This document shows, one piece after another, positions 1 to 19,649 of a DNA stretch of 64,000 nucleotides. Position 1 is the stretch's first letter; each line of letters begins with the position of its first letter. The position numbers and the translations under genes were made by a program. The notes beneath the pieces are model-generated. The model made no database searches and was not told the origin of the DNA. It saw nothing but the letters and a program-made list of their open reading frames with translations. Origin of the DNA: a virus; the IMG/VR virus record IMGVR_UViG_3300016476_001289. One strand, given 5' to 3'.

Positions 1-21
1 ATGGAATACTGACTATAATGG

Positions 22-82
22 ATTATAGACTATAATAGAATTATGTTCTTCTTAAAAACATAATTCTATTATAGACTATAAT
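22..82. repeat. 26-bp-arm inverted repeat containing two copies of the interrupted palindrome ATTATAG-A-CTATAAT
   Basis: 30-47 CTATAATAGAATTATGTT is the exact reverse complement of 57-74; arms extend to 22-47/57-82 with one mismatch; ATTATAGACTATAAT at 22-36 and 68-82. Confidence 0.85.
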
Positions 83-87
83 AGACA

Positions 88-279
88 TCAATAACCATCT
101 TTAAACCACCCTGATCCCTTTAAAGAGAAACTAGAAGGTTTAAGAATCTTATGAACTTCACCAGTACAAGGTGAATCTTTATCAAGATCAGAACATTTAG
201 TAGGTGGTGTTTCAAAAGGATTTAATCTTAAAGTTTTTTCCTTTTCACATTTATTACATTTATAGGTGTAAATAGGCAT
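88..279 (-). CDS. FmdB-family zinc-ribbon protein
   Basis: MPIYTYKCxxC...C...C...FSLKGSGWFKDGY is the typical FmdB pattern. Confidence 0.85.
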   Translation of the reverse strand: MPIYTYKCNKCEKEKTLRLNPFETPPTKCSDLDKDSPCTGEVHKILKPSSFSLKGSGWFKDGY

Positions 280-333
280 ATCAAATATCTCCTGTGTTTA
301 TTTATAACTATACCACTCATAGAAAGAAGAATC

Positions 334-801
334 ATGAGAATAGATAATGAAGCTCTTATGAAAGAAGTAAAAGAATCATCAATAGAGTCTTTTATAGAAA
401 CACTAAATAAGTTAAGTCCTATATGGGAAAAAGAAACCCAACCTCTTAATGCTCTTATGCCTGTGTTGTTTCTACCTGTCTTATTTAAAGAGTTTAATTT
501 TGATAAAGGATCAGTAATATTCAATATAGAAGCACCTATCGTTTTAGATACAGAAGGTGAACTAAAAGAAAGCTGTTATAGAGAGATTTATGATTATATT
601 GAAAATAACCCTAAGACTATTTGTTATGGTATCTTAGGTGAAGATTCAGGTGGCTATTATATAGAATTTGAGAATATAGAAGAGTGTATAAAGGTGAAGT
701 GTGTAAAAGGTGAAGATGGTTTATTAGTAGAAGGTGAGAGAGAGAAATCTTTAAGGATACCTTTACTTAGTTTTCATCCCGATTCTTCTTTTCCAAATTA
801 A
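334..801 (+). CDS. hypothetical protein
   Basis: 155-aa ORF with natural composition. Confidence 0.6.
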   Translation: MRIDNEALMKEVKESSIESFIETLNKLSPIWEKETQPLNALMPVLFLPVLFKEFNFDKGSVIFNIEAPIVLDTEGELKESCYREIYDYIENNPKTICYGILGEDSGGYYIEFENIEECIKVKCVKGEDGLLVEGEREKSLRIPLLSFHPDSSFPN

Positions 802-15282: not shown

Positions 15283-15338
15283 TTACTAATATAATATAGT
15301 ATATTCTCTTTGTCTTATTTAATAAGGATATACTACTA

Positions 15339-16736
15339 ATGAAGATCAATGTTGAAAATTTTCAATCTATCAGTAAAGCACAAGTTGAAGTTAAAGGTTT
15401 AACTATTATCACAGGTCAAAATAACACAGGTAAATCAGCACTTGCTAGAGCTATATCAGGTGTCTTCACTAACCCTAGAGGAAATAGCTTTGTTCGTATA
15501 GGAAATCCCTCCACCTCTGTTGAAATTGAATTTGATGATGGTAATACGATTAAATGGTCTAAAGGTAAAAATGTTAATGAGTATGAAGTGAATGGTAAAC
15601 TCATTCAAAAAGTAGGCACTGAAGTTCCTGATGAAGTTTATCTTGCTAGTAAAGTAAAACCTGTTGAAGTAGATAATAAAGAAGTCTACCCTCAAATCGC
15701 TAAACAATTCCAACAAGTGTTTTTAATTGATCTCCCACCATCTTCTCTTGCTAGTGCTTTATCTAATGTCGATATTATCCAACAACTAGAAAAAGCATCT
15801 GCCTTAGCTAGAACAGAGATTAAAGATTTAGGCACTCAAATTAAAACTAAAACTAATGACCTTAATGAAGCTAAAGACTATATCAAAAAATTTAATGGTG
15901 TTGATGATATAGAAAAACAACTTATACTTATAGATCAATTAGAGAACAGGCTTAAACAAAAAGAAGAGAATATCACCACCCTAGAACAAGAATTTAAACA
16001 AAGAAATGCTTTAAAATCTCTTATAGATAACTTATCTGATGCCTTAAATATAGACATTAAAACAGACAATAATGCTTTATTAGACCTAGAAAATCGTTAT
16101 ATCGCAGGGTATGCGGACCGTCTCAAAAGAAACACTTTAAACACTATTATTTCTAATTTAGAAGATGTTAGTCATGTAAATATCACCACCGACCCTTCTA
16201 TTATTGAATATAAAGATAACACCTTATCTAGTGTTTTAGATTTACAGGTGAAACAAGATAAACTTAAAAAAGTATATGAAGTATTAAAAGATAGTGTCTA
16301 TATAGAGAATATAGACACAGATCATATTCTTATAGAAGATAAGACAAACACCTTAAACGATATAGTAGATTTACAAGAAAGACAACTTAAAGCATATAAG
16401 ATATATCAGTCTTTAAAGGGTGTGAGGAATGTTAATTTTAGTATTGATGTAAATAGAATAGAATCTTTAGAAGAGGTGATAAAGTTAAAGAGAAATAGAA
16501 TGAGATTGAAGTTAGCTATATATATTTTAGAAGGGGGTTTAGAAACATTACCTAAGATTAAGAATGTTAATGTAGATAATAGGATAGATGAGTTAGATAT
16601 GTTAAAAGAGAATAAGAATAAACTTGAATCAGCAATAGGTATAATTAATAATGAATTGGTAAAAGTAAACAAAGAACTTGAAGAATTACATATAGGTGAT
16701 ATATGTCCTTTATGTAATCAAGGTGTCTGTAAGTAG
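15339..16736 (+). CDS. Rad50/SbcC N-terminal half (Walker A, coiled coil, terminal zinc hook)
   Basis: VENFQS, GQNNTGKS, Q-loop region, coiled coil, ends in CPLC; no Walker B. Confidence 0.85.
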   Translation: MKINVENFQSISKAQVEVKGLTIITGQNNTGKSALARAISGVFTNPRGNSFVRIGNPSTSVEIEFDDGNTIKWSKGKNVNEYEVNGKLIQKVGTEVPDEVYLASKVKPVEVDNKEVYPQIAKQFQQVFLIDLPPSSLASALSNVDIIQQLEKASALARTEIKDLGTQIKTKTNDLNEAKDYIKKFNGVDDIEKQLILIDQLENRLKQKEENITTLEQEFKQRNALKSLIDNLSDALNIDIKTDNNALLDLENRYIAGYADRLKRNTLNTIISNLEDVSHVNITTDPSIIEYKDNTLSSVLDLQVKQDKLKKVYEVLKDSVYIENIDTDHILIEDKTNTLNDIVDLQERQLKAYKIYQSLKGVRNVNFSIDVNRIESLEEVIKLKRNRMRLKLAIYILEGGLETLPKIKNVNVDNRIDELDMLKENKNKLESAIGIINNELVKVNKELEELHIGDICPLCNQGVCK

Positions 16737-16742
16737 GTGAAT

Positions 16743-16961
16743 ATGTTATTTTGGTTTGGTAATACATCAAACGATATAAGTTCTAATGAAACATTTTTAT
16801 ATTTAAAATCTAGTGTGTCTTCTCGTTTAAGTGGTGTTCCTGTATATGAAGATAATTTTAGAAGAGCTATAAGCTTATATGTCGCTAGGAATAGAAGAGT
16901 AATTATAGATAATTTTGGAATACATGAAGATGTCTATTTAGCACCTAAGGTGAGTAAATAA
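16743..16961 (+). CDS. small paralogue array member 1 (target-recognition-subdomain-like)
   Basis: NFRRAISLYVAR...VYLAPK; ATG at 16743 after AGGTGA SD preferred over GTG at 16737. Confidence 0.8.
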   Translation: MLFWFGNTSNDISSNETFLYLKSSVSSRLSGVPVYEDNFRRAISLYVARNRRVIIDNFGIHEDVYLAPKVSK

Positions 16962-16962
16962 A

Positions 16963-17187
16963 ATGATCTGCTATATACATAGTAATGGTAATGATGTACA
17001 ATTTAATCAAACTCATGTATGGATTATGAGTAATAAATATCAAGGAACAAACTCAGGACCACATGGGTTTTATATAACAAGAGAGAATATAAGAAGAGCT
17101 ATTGCATATTACAATGCTAGAGCTTTAATAAAATCAAGTTGGGTATTTACAAATAATGTATATTTACCACCTAAGGTGAGTAAATAA
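16963..17187 (+). CDS. small paralogue array member 2
   Basis: NIRRAIAYYNAR...VYLPPK. Confidence 0.8.
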   Translation: MICYIHSNGNDVQFNQTHVWIMSNKYQGTNSGPHGFYITRENIRRAIAYYNARALIKSSWVFTNNVYLPPKVSK

Positions 17188-17188
17188 A

Positions 17189-17416
17189 ATGATATGCTAT
17201 TTTGAAATAAGTAGGAATAATACATCAAGAAATAGAATGTTTGTAATTATATTAAGCAGTCAATTTTCTGATAAAAGTGGTGTGCCAATATTTGAAAAGA
17301 ATTTTAGAAACTTTATAAGTTTATCTGTTGCTAAAAGTGATACGATAATACCACAAAGTCGATGGGTTTCTCATGGAGATGTCTATTATGCACCTAAGAA
17401 AGATACTTTAAAATGA
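17189..17416 (+). CDS. small paralogue array member 3
   Basis: NFRNFISLSVAK...VYYAPK. Confidence 0.8.
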   Translation: MICYFEISRNNTSRNRMFVIILSSQFSDKSGVPIFEKNFRNFISLSVAKSDTIIPQSRWVSHGDVYYAPKKDTLK

Positions 17417-17634
17417 TTTGTTGGTTTGAAAATGACTCTAATGATATATCTAGTATAGATACTTATGTATTCTTATTATCTAGTGTATCGAGTAGAAAAA
17501 CAGGTATCTATGTCCACCCTTTTAATTTTAGAAAATCATTATCTCTCTATATAGCTAGAAATAGAGATATTATATCCCCTACAGATTTTCGTATACATAA
17601 TAATGAATACTTAGCACCTAAGGTGAATAAGTAA
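17413..17634 (+). CDS. small paralogue array member 4
   Basis: NFRKSLSLYIAR...EYLAPK; ATGA overlap with member 3. Confidence 0.8.
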   Translation: MICWFENDSNDISSIDTYVFLLSSVSSRKTGIYVHPFNFRKSLSLYIARNRDIISPTDFRIHNNEYLAPKVNK

Positions 17635-17635
17635 A

Positions 17636-17866
17636 ATGATCTGTTGGTTTGAACATAGTAATAATGAGATTGCTAGAAATGAAAAGATGGTTTTCATACT
17701 TTCTTCTCTATCTTCCAGTAAATCAGGTGTCTGTGTAAAGAAAGAGAACTTTAGAGAATTTATTGCTTTAAGTGCAAGTAAAGGTAGAGAAGTTATAGGT
17801 AGGAGTAAATGGTTTATTATTAATGATCCTTATTTTAAACCTAAAAAAAATGAAGGAAGGGGGTAA
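17636..17866 (+). CDS. small paralogue array member 5
   Basis: NFREFIALSASK...PYFKPK. Confidence 0.8.
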   Translation: MICWFEHSNNEIARNEKMVFILSSLSSSKSGVCVKKENFREFIALSASKGREVIGRSKWFIINDPYFKPKKNEGRG

Positions 17867-17871
17867 ATAAA

Positions 17872-18096
17872 ATGATCTGTTGGTTTGAAAATCATGGGAA
17901 CGATGTTTCCAATATTAATACTTATGTCTTTATCACTTCTACTATATCTAGTAGACACTCAGGTTTCTATTCTCAAAAAAGTAATTTTAGAAGATCAATA
18001 GGTTTATATATAGCTAGAAATAGAGATATAATACCCCCCACTAATTACACCTTACATAATAATGTATACCTAGCACCTAATAGAGAAACTATATAA
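17872..18096 (+). CDS. small paralogue array member 6
   Basis: NFRRSIGLYIAR...VYLAPN. Confidence 0.8.
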   Translation: MICWFENHGNDVSNINTYVFITSTISSRHSGFYSQKSNFRRSIGLYIARNRDIIPPTNYTLHNNVYLAPNRETI

Positions 18097-18097
18097 A

Positions 18098-18337
18098 ATG
18101 ATATTTCACTTTGAGATAAATAGAAATGAAGTAAGGACAAATTCTATATTGGTAGTTCTCACATCTAGCTGTTATGGATATGGTAGCACACCTATAAATG
18201 AAAATAACTTTAGAAGAGCTATTGCCCTATATATATGTAGGACAGGTAATATTATTGATAATAGAAAATATGAAAATTGGCATAAGACAAGTGATAAATA
18301 CCTAGCTCCTAAAATAAAGTCTCTTGCTGATATTTAA
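18098..18337 (+). CDS. small paralogue array member 7
   Basis: NFRRAIALYICR...KYLAPK. Confidence 0.8.
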   Translation: MIFHFEINRNEVRTNSILVVLTSSCYGYGSTPINENNFRRAIALYICRTGNIIDNRKYENWHKTSDKYLAPKIKSLADI

Positions 18338-19448
18338 CACTCTTTACTTCTTTATTTATAGAATTACCTTCACCTATATACTCATGTGAATAACATATTC
18401 TCTCAGCATGAGAATTATAATCAAAGCTAGTATAAGCACCTCTCTTCTTATCACTTGTAGCCATACCTACATAAGAACTCTTTCTACTCACATTATTCAT
18501 ACTCGTAGGCTTCCAATTAGATGCCCTATTTCTATGTTCACCTAGTTTAGGGTGTGCTGTTTTAGAAAAATACCTACACCCCTTATCTATAAACATTTGT
18601 GCTATCGTATCAGATAACTTCGATCCTAATCCTATACCTTGATAATCAGGTAGAATAACCGTTCTATGTTCTCTCCAAGCATTTCTTACATCACGACCAG
18701 GTGATGGGATAGCTGATGAGAAACCACAAATGTGATCTTTATCGTTAAGCATTAACCAACAATAAGCACCTGCATTAATATCCGAACTTAAATAGTGATG
18801 GTTTTTGAAGACTGCCCATGCTTTTGTTGAGCAAGGTATAATTCGATATTCTGAAGATTGCCGAACTGACCTCCCTTCTACAAGCGACCCTGTAATAGTG
18901 TTTATAACCCAATCAGGTTCTAACCAATCTATAACATCTTCATGACATGATGCTATTACAATCTTCCTATATCCTAGTTTATCTATGGTATTCCTTAACC
19001 CTATACTAATAGATTTAGCTAAGTCTCTATTACAGACACTTGTAAATTCATCTATAATACAGCCGTCTTTTAAAGACACAGCAATATCCGCCCTATGTTT
19101 TTCACCTGTAGATAAAACATGATATGGTCTACATAGGGAAGGAATGGAAGATAAACCTAATCTCATAAGAAGATTGGGGTCAACTTGAGAAGCAATAGCT
19201 TTATTGGAATCCCAACTAAATTCGGTGATATTACCAAATTCTTGTAATAAGGTAGACTTGCCTGTACCAGAAGACCCATAGATAACCCCTAAAGAAAATT
19301 CATTGGGGACTTCAAATTCAGGTACTAAGAAAGAAGATTCACCTGAAAAAGTATAATCTGTAGCTTGAGATAGATTCTCTAAAATAGAGTCAAGTTCTAC
19401 TTTGATGGTTCTTTGATAACCACCTATTTTTTTGTAATCAAATAACAT
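18309..19448 (-). CDS. ABC-type ATPase fused to a GNAT-like acyltransferase domain
   Basis: GSSGTGKST, LSTGE, IIDEFTS, ASCHED; then FKNHHYL and RTVILPDYQGIGLG acyl-CoA-binding motif; no TM segments. Confidence 0.85.
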   Translation of the reverse strand: MLFDYKKIGGYQRTIKVELDSILENLSQATDYTFSGESSFLVPEFEVPNEFSLGVIYGSSGTGKSTLLQEFGNITEFSWDSNKAIASQVDPNLLMRLGLSSIPSLCRPYHVLSTGEKHRADIAVSLKDGCIIDEFTSVCNRDLAKSISIGLRNTIDKLGYRKIVIASCHEDVIDWLEPDWVINTITGSLVEGRSVRQSSEYRIIPCSTKAWAVFKNHHYLSSDINAGAYCWLMLNDKDHICGFSSAIPSPGRDVRNAWREHRTVILPDYQGIGLGSKLSDTIAQMFIDKGCRYFSKTAHPKLGEHRNRASNWKPTSMNNVSRKSSYVGMATSDKKRGAYTSFDYNSHAERICYSHEYIGEGNSINKEVKSVKYQQETLF

Positions 19449-19649
19449 AATATGATGTCCTTGTAAGAGTAGATAACATCCTATTATTATATGATAGATA
19501 TAATAAACTACTCTGTCTTTTGTTTAAATTGAGATCATATCCTAGACATAAGATCATCATATTGAGATTGGGTAAGTTGTCTTTAAGGTATTATCTATGT
19601 TGTGTCATTAAAATACTATAATATTATATTATCATTGAAAGGATTTATT

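Follow-up and report, generated by a model that had tools for sequence, protein, structure and literature searches.

Arrayed small proteins of a huge freshwater phage as probable recognition-domain inserts for a module-less adenine methyltransferase

Temperate phages of Bacillus encode multispecific C5 methyltransferases (the SPR, phi3T and rho11s type) that carry several recognition domains on one polypeptide, according to the passage on these enzymes in PMC12707154, where Trautner et al. 1996 is cited for them. As in what we propose here, one phage core serves several short interchangeable recognition units and is directed against many restriction systems. The Bacillus-phage enzymes have no sequence relationship to the family described below, and they are C5-cytosine methyltransferases with all of their recognition domains in cis, whereas the present core is a gamma-class N6-adenine methyltransferase (NPPY). 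The S subunits of Type I systems (HsdS) and of type IIB/IIG systems offer a second comparison. According to PMC12707154, it is the exchange of subunits in vivo, of HsdS above all, that defines the Type I families. In these systems a separate polypeptide gives the core its specificity and alternative versions are exchangeable, which is also what we propose for this locus. HsdS is much larger, however, and comprises two recognition domains separated by conserved helical spacers, whereas the proteins described here consist of a 50-aa sub-domain and a tail and, unlike HsdS, would complete a recognition domain of which the core retains the other half. To our knowledge, no described member of the type IIG/IIL and gamma-class families has a sub-domain excised into a multi-copy gene array.

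The window, by which we mean the whole 64,000-nucleotide stretch of DNA that was analyzed, is part of a 371,667-bp metagenomic contig from an uncultivated freshwater huge phage. In GenBank, an uncultured phage of 485 kb comes closest to it, with a RecA identity of 51%. At 16743-18337 the window harbors seven successive ORFs of 72-79 aa on the + strand, each with its own ATG and stop codon, which we refer to as modules. Upstream of the array lie a recA/uvsX-like gene and then a gene for an sbcC-like ATPase ending in a CxxC hook. On the other side is a gene for an ABC-ATPase and GNAT protein, beyond which are sbcD-like, PD-(D/E)xK exonuclease and sliding-clamp genes. Among the genes next to the array there is no gene for an invertase or recombinase. 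An earlier note, made from the sequence alone, had called the ABC-GNAT neighbor a putative DNA-modifying gene, but that reading is unsupported. Its Pfam and PHROGs matches are listed here with the features of the locus.

GTG at 16737, + strand: alternative start of module 1, directly 3' of the sbcC-like stop codon.
16743..16961, + strand: module 1, 72 aa from the ATG at 16743; profile E 1e-35.
16930..16995, + strand: inter-cassette junction (..CACCTAAGGTGAGTAAATAAAATGATCTG..), conserved; repeat family D3.
16963..17187, + strand: module 2, 74 aa; groups with the methyltransferase-adjacent type; missing in the near-identical strain L086.
17189..17416, + strand: module 3, 75 aa; missing in strain L086.
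17413..17634, + strand: module 4, 73 aa; the copy that was modeled and co-folded.
17636..17866, + strand: module 5, 76 aa.
17872..18096, + strand: module 6, 74 aa.
18098..18337, + strand: module 7, 79 aa; its last 29 nt lie within the convergent ABC-GNAT gene.
18309-19448, - strand: ABC-ATPase and GNAT protein, convergent with the array; Pfam Acetyltransf_1, phrog_11143.

The module ORFs are coupled to one another, mostly through TAAAATG or ATGA stop/start overlaps and otherwise across gaps of 1-5 nt, and the conserved PKVSK codons for the C-terminal part of each preceding module contain an SD-like AAGGTGA. The junction at 16930..16995 is made up of these PKVSK codons with their SD-like sequence, the stop codon and the next ATG, and it repeats at 17156-17221 and 17603-17668. 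When the seven proteins were aligned over their full length, M, N, S, N, R, Y and P positions were invariant within the scaffold MIC(W/Y)F..N..V..SS..G..NFR..I.L..(R/K)..W..YLAP, and pairwise identity was 30-60%. Modules 1, 4 and 6 form one subgroup (46-60% identity) and modules 3 and 5 another (47%). Judged from this alignment, the seven ORFs are true paralogues, and the earlier note had been right about the scaffold, the coupling with individual starts and stops, and both subgroups. It had also stated that no catalytic domain is attached, and none is present in any of the seven. The copies share only 60-80% identity at the DNA level, so the duplications appear to be old. All seven proteins are basic (pI 8.9-9.8); they are thus not DNA mimics, and an anti-restriction protein of the Ocr or ArdA type, with its acidic surface, is ruled out.

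A profile of the module family matched 229 cluster representatives at E<=1e-3 in a search of 1.84 billion proteins, which places the family far beyond chance. The majority of these relatives are stand-alone proteins of ~70-80 aa, and dozens are long proteins. We also compared the small proteins with curated collections. Pfam at E<=10 returned a sub-threshold HEPN-like match only and neither Methylase_S nor TaqI_C, PHROGs and PADLOC returned no annotation, and the best match in a PDB sequence search had an E of only 0.67. The structure model of module 4 (73 aa) has a single beta-alpha-beta-beta-alpha core with an extended W..D.Y.AP tail. Taken in isolation, this model matched no solved fold in Foldseek (best E 4.6) and reached a Z of at most 2.4 in a wide VIA-align search. 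A tblastn search of 50,697 GenBank phage records with a module and with two of the long proteins introduced below (P0118 and P0508) found no match, blastn of the array locus gave trivial matches only, and a promoter and terminator scan around the array scored no better than shuffled sequence.

The long proteins that contain the module, which we call the parent family, are ~820 aa in length and hold it at a fixed place, ~166 residues before the C-terminus. When 137 stand-alone modules were compared by hhalign with 46 parents, the probability was 99.5% (E 7.3e-23, 76 columns), with the match at 593-671 of parent P0118, and an HMM built from the parent profile matched 7/7 of the window ORFs at E 1e-12 to 3e-18. 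The stand-alone modules are therefore homologous to a segment of ~70 aa that, in the parents, lies just C-terminal to an NPPY gamma-class N6-adenine methyltransferase domain. From the N-terminus, the parents have a conserved E..D..ExK nuclease-like region followed by FxTP, motif I and NPPY. The gamma-class motifs FxTP, motif I (xDxxxGxG) and motif IV (NPPY) are visible in P0118, P0138, P0143 and P0508, and N407, P408 and P409 are invariant in the family. At 90% identity it comprises more than 1000 clusters, mostly phage-borne (68 IMG/VR loci), with some in Clostridium genomes. No Pfam or NCBIfam model covers the whole parent family, and searches of NCBIfam and PADLOC with the parents gave marginal MTase_II and MAD2 matches only. 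These parents define a large uncharacterized family of phage type IIG-like enzymes.

An AlphaFold model of P0118 (pLDDT 91) was compared with solved structures. Foldseek matched it to DrdV (7e-9), BpuSI (2e-8), M.BseCI (1e-6) and MmeI (2e-6), and it also resembles type ISP enzymes, M.TaqI and CamA, at a sequence identity to DrdV, BpuSI, MmeI, M.TaqI, M.BseCI and CamA of only 9-17%. VIA-align gave a Z of 18.0 against DrdV (357 aligned residues, rmsd 10.4), a Z of 16.6 for P0118 299..683 against M.TaqI 21..412 (303 residues, rmsd 5.0), and a Z of ~15.6 for P0118 298..831 against CamA and M.BseCI. DrdV, BpuSI and MmeI also share with the parents the order of nuclease-like region, gamma methyltransferase and C-terminal recognition domain. 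The alignments to M.TaqI, CamA and M.BseCI pass through the module into the C-terminal DNA-recognition domains, and the recognition domain of CamA starts near residue 320 (PMC8187626). The module therefore falls in the region equivalent to the recognition domains of enzymes that share the parent fold, and the recognition region of the parents begins with it. The resemblance to the C-terminal specificity region of type IIG-like adenine methyltransferases, which the earlier note had proposed, is thus correct on both profile homology and structure matches.

If the module set specificity in the parents, it might be expected to be their hypervariable part. This was not so: mean entropy in the parent family was 1.88 within the module versus 2.11 in the rest of the protein. 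Other parts of the parents thus vary more than the module does, which makes it no more than a candidate specificity determinant.

The lineage of the window departs from the parent layout. In two relatives, the complete 316-kb genome G012 and the genome G014, ORFs of 519 aa and 520 aa respectively cover the parent profile from 244 to 577 and from 634 to 816 and leave the module (579-652) unmatched. Each is colinear with the methyltransferase domain, linker helix and C-terminal domain of the parent, and the ~57-column core (IGY..N..N..V.L.SS..G..NF.R..LF.ARK) is replaced by about 17 residues. The nuclease-like N-domain is a separate gene in G012, 54 kb distant. A 510-aa protein on the window's own 371,667-bp contig (P0508) also has no module core; its FxTP, motif I and NPPY are intact, the sequence at the gap reads ..PKEIPYI/DHPIIPFTQKW..YIQP, and its cluster representative is 78% identical to the G012 core. 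An N6-adenine methyltransferase without the segment, which the earlier note had proposed looking for, is therefore encoded in G012, in G014 and on the contig of the window. In these sequences, the methyltransferase of this lineage is without exactly the piece that the stand-alone modules encode, a precise complementary deletion.

The genes for the module-less enzyme and the modules also co-localize. In G012 and G014 an array of stand-alone modules lies directly 3' of the module-less methyltransferase gene, and in G014 the first module overlaps the methyltransferase stop codon. Gene maps of two other contigs with P0508 have 5-7 ORFs of 70-88 aa downstream of it. The window array is ~90 kb away from its methyltransferase gene. 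The module-less proteins form a clade of 12 clusters at 69-89% identity, after which identity jumps to 37-40% (the parents). This clade and the modules co-occur on at least 11 contigs, with contigs equated by their length, and stand-alone modules were found in 0/10 of the jumbo-phage genomes with an intact parent.

We co-folded the G012 core with window module 4. The ipSAE was 0.81 (0.81, 0.87 and 0.76 in separate runs), while the best of 3 controls gave 0.00, in agreement with the suggestion in the earlier note that such proteins could plug into a methyltransferase core. About 200 contacts were predicted, with at least 71% contact agreement between runs and a partner pLDDT of at least 67; the mark used for a positive co-fold is reached by 58/80 solved complexes and by 2/110 mismatched pairs. 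The core was taken from a relative, and the alignment included fused parents and may bias the prediction toward the intramolecular arrangement. In the model, the module is seated among the final part of the catalytic domain, the linker helix (282-305), the beginning of the C-terminal domain (358-380) and the last residues of the core protein (501-518). The co-fold supports binding of the module to the core, with docking into this seat as a prediction of the model.

The predicted interface buries most of the module and leaves residues 6, 8, 14-18, 28, 30, 31 and 34 outside. Of these, 14-18, 28 and 30 rank with the most variable positions, both in the stand-alone copies and in the parents. The residues conserved in the stand-alone copies are those conserved in the embedded module, and they are predicted core contacts. 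Overall, the difference in entropy between contact and non-contact positions was not significant (p = 0.065).

Four arrangements of the module occur among the relatives. The commonest is one module in cis. A second has 2-5 modules in cis within a single ORF (P0084, P0083, P0102, P0103, P0166 and P0082), which is the layout of the Bacillus-phage C5 methyltransferases. P0084 has four modules back to back and P0083 three, and P0082, which matches Pfam N6_Mtase and Eco57I, has five in a permuted arrangement. In the third, found in at least 12 phage loci of the parent family, the whole recognition region is split off as a separate subunit of ~305 aa. The fourth is that of the window lineage, with 0 modules in cis and about 13-19 in trans per genome: G012 has 13 in three arrays and G014 at least 19. 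In this lineage, unlike in the Bacillus-phage enzymes, the modules are separate proteins of ~75 aa in arrays, which may give the core several specificities. Single arrays hold up to 11 modules and are found after the methyltransferase gene, after polA, between dnaB and the primase gene (in G012) and, in the window, after sbcC.

The content of the arrays varies among related phages, even between near-identical strains. The module 7 protein is identical on 18 contigs, and the arrays on these contigs have 4-7 cassettes of differing types. In strain L086, cassettes 1, 6 and 7 are nucleotide-identical to those of the window (100% for module 1), and cassettes 2 and 3 are absent owing to a 452-bp indel that ends at the shared junction. 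Contigs from other freshwater studies join and diverge at cassette borders (for instance at the contig joint 16968->17419), and chimeric cassettes as well as cassette swaps were seen among the arrays. The inter-cassette junction is likely to be the homology arm for the gain, loss and swapping of cassettes.

Our data best support a mechanism in which interchangeable recognition-domain inserts complement a methyltransferase core in trans. The module, a core of ~50 aa with the beta-alpha-beta-beta-alpha fold and a W..D.YLAP tail, is internal in ordinary members of the family. In the huge-phage lineage the methyltransferase gene has lost this core, which the small genes of several arrays, the seven in the window and an array near polA among them, would supply instead. 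Each small protein would dock into the vacant slot between catalytic domain, linker helix and C-terminal helical domain and complete a functional enzyme, one module at a time. We infer that docking restores activity and that each module gives the enzyme a sequence specificity of its own; the exposed residues facing the DNA cleft (positions 13-18 and 28-30) would vary from one paralogue to the next. A single core would then methylate several motifs, so that the phage DNA would be protected from many restriction systems, and strains would exchange cassettes by recombination at the conserved stop/SD/ATG junctions. Multiple DNA specificities are the simplest explanation for a repertoire so large and so shuffled. 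We think it probable that the modules are trans-acting recognition-domain inserts that make one catalytic core multispecific. The complete picture, in which one core with a vacant slot accepts ~15 inserts of 75 aa, each directing a different motif, in strain-swapped cassettes that serve counter-restriction, is put forward more tentatively, as somewhat less likely than not.

If it is true, this would be the first adenine-methyltransferase counterpart of the multispecific phage C5 methyltransferases, and the first case of a multi-copy cassette library providing a recognition sub-domain of only ~75 aa in trans. It would also explain how the DNA of huge phages broadly exposed to restriction systems is protected. 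The scaffold would be naturally modular, allowing the specificity of methyltransferases or restriction enzymes to be engineered by swapping a tiny subunit.

Three functions had been suggested for the array in the earlier note, namely plugging in trans into a methyltransferase core, donating sequence to one by recombination, and acting as decoys against restriction enzymes; our results favor the first and disfavor the other two. Even if the modules do assemble with the core, they might be structural or regulatory plugs whose paralogues differ in timing, stability, tethering or inhibitor resistance and not in specificity. The relative conservation of the module within the parent family fits such a role, as do its extensive burial in the predicted interface and the location of arrays behind different replication and recombination genes (sbcC, polA, dnaB/primase). 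We consider it unlikely, however, as ~13-19 diverged paralogues per genome and cassette turnover at the level of strains would be hard to explain, and the positions that vary, in parents and stand-alone copies, are the exposed ones. It is decidedly unlikely that the modules are subunit poisons or decoys that fill the slot or interface of type IIG-like enzymes of rival phages, prophages or hosts. The slot of an intact parent is already filled in cis, and the very genomes with modules encode the complementarily deleted core, with modules translationally coupled to it. What speaks for poisoning is that potential targets with a conserved D..ExK nuclease-like N-domain are widespread in phages and present in some Clostridium genomes, that in naturally split forms the recognition region is assembled in trans, that the rapid turnover of cassettes is reminiscent of counter-defense islands, and that genomes with an intact parent lack stand-alone modules.

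The modules might instead have been exapted for a role unrelated to methylation, for example as small accessory proteins that bind DNA or the replisome. The position of the window array inside a recA-sbcC ... sbcD cluster, the arrays after polA or dnaB and the failure of the isolated module to match a solved fold are all compatible with this. Set against it are the conservation of the same residues, predicted to contact the core, in stand-alone and embedded modules, and the co-occurrence of module arrays with the module-less core throughout the lineage, and we regard exaptation as more improbable still. Recombination is evidently frequent, given the conserved junctions, chimeric cassettes and swaps, and would be expected if the copies were silent donors for gene conversion into the recognition region of the methyltransferase, in the manner of shufflons or hsdS, and not working proteins. 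Yet every copy has an ATG exactly at the start of the module and an SD-like AAGGTGA upstream, its frame is intact, and stop/start coupling is kept throughout. The resident methyltransferase offers no module as a target for conversion, and an invertase or recombinase gene is absent beside the array. Silent cassettes were rejected on the basis of the intact starts and the coupling, and we give this explanation hardly any credence.

Returning to the preferred reading of inserts acting in trans on a core, a tree of the modules bears on which partner each would have. Cassette types are kept across divergent genomes and are shuffled between near-identical strains. With moderate support, the tree separates a methyltransferase-adjacent group, which includes window module 2, from a MICWF group that holds the other six window modules. 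Because the MICWF group stands apart from most methyltransferase-adjacent modules, and the window array lies far from the methyltransferase gene, these six modules could serve another partner. The 316-kb relative has an orthologue of module 4, 82% identical to it, behind polA, and in strains L084 and L085 the position of module 6 is taken by a different cassette with the same C-terminal tail.

The parent family of phage adenine methyltransferases, represented by P0118, P0138 and related phage proteins (loci L015-L082), is very large and comprises over 1000 clusters at 90% identity. Its members, ~820 aa each, join a nuclease-like domain with a D..ExK motif to a gamma N6A methyltransferase domain and a recognition domain. 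Neither Pfam nor NCBIfam has a model for the family in its entirety, and two members, P0118 and the module-less core P0508, gave no match when searched by tblastn against GenBank phage records. Split forms were found at 12 or more IMG/VR loci, where a break after the methyltransferase domain yields proteins of ~500 aa and ~305 aa. In P0082 the order is permuted, so that the C-terminal domain comes first and is followed by the methyltransferase domain and then by five tandem units of linker plus module.

L006:698-3712, P0082, 1004 aa, adjoining a small-terminase gene.

The 316-kb relative phage genome G012 carries the nuclease-like N-domain of the family as a gene of its own, and also carries several module arrays.

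L103:1808-2791, minus strand, separate nuclease-like gene, 328 aa.
L101:786-1082, minus strand, chimeric module ORF, 98 aa, in the methyltransferase-adjacent array.
L102:5273-6024, minus strand, third module array, three modules.

The separate nuclease-like gene, which keeps the D..ExK motif, and the methyltransferase core are about 54 kb apart. In the 98-aa ORF two module halves are joined, with a MICWF start and then two NFR..A.Y segments; it is direct evidence that the cassettes recombine with each other. The third array is flanked by genes for a DnaB-like helicase and a DnaG-type zinc-ribbon primase.

Two genes flank the seven-module array in the window.

15339-16736, plus strand, sbcC/Rad50-like ATPase (AAA_23, phrog_16465).
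18309-19448, minus strand, fusion of an ABC-type ATPase with a GNAT acetyltransferase (phrog_11143, a group with no assigned function).

The array starts at the stop codon of the sbcC/Rad50-like gene. This ATPase is just 465 aa long. Since its last residues form a CPLC zinc-hook-like motif, it seems to represent just the N-terminal half, and the C-terminal ATPase half is not encoded next to it. The ABC-GNAT gene is convergent with the last module, overlaps it by 29 nt and keeps its place beside the array in all strain variants. The earlier note had called this neighbor putatively DNA-modifying, a label that the results do not support.

Near-identical matches to window 15300-19500 occurred in metagenomes from 16 studies, which sampled freshwater, lakes, lagoons and estuaries and included some soil or marine sites; the phage lineage is therefore widespread.
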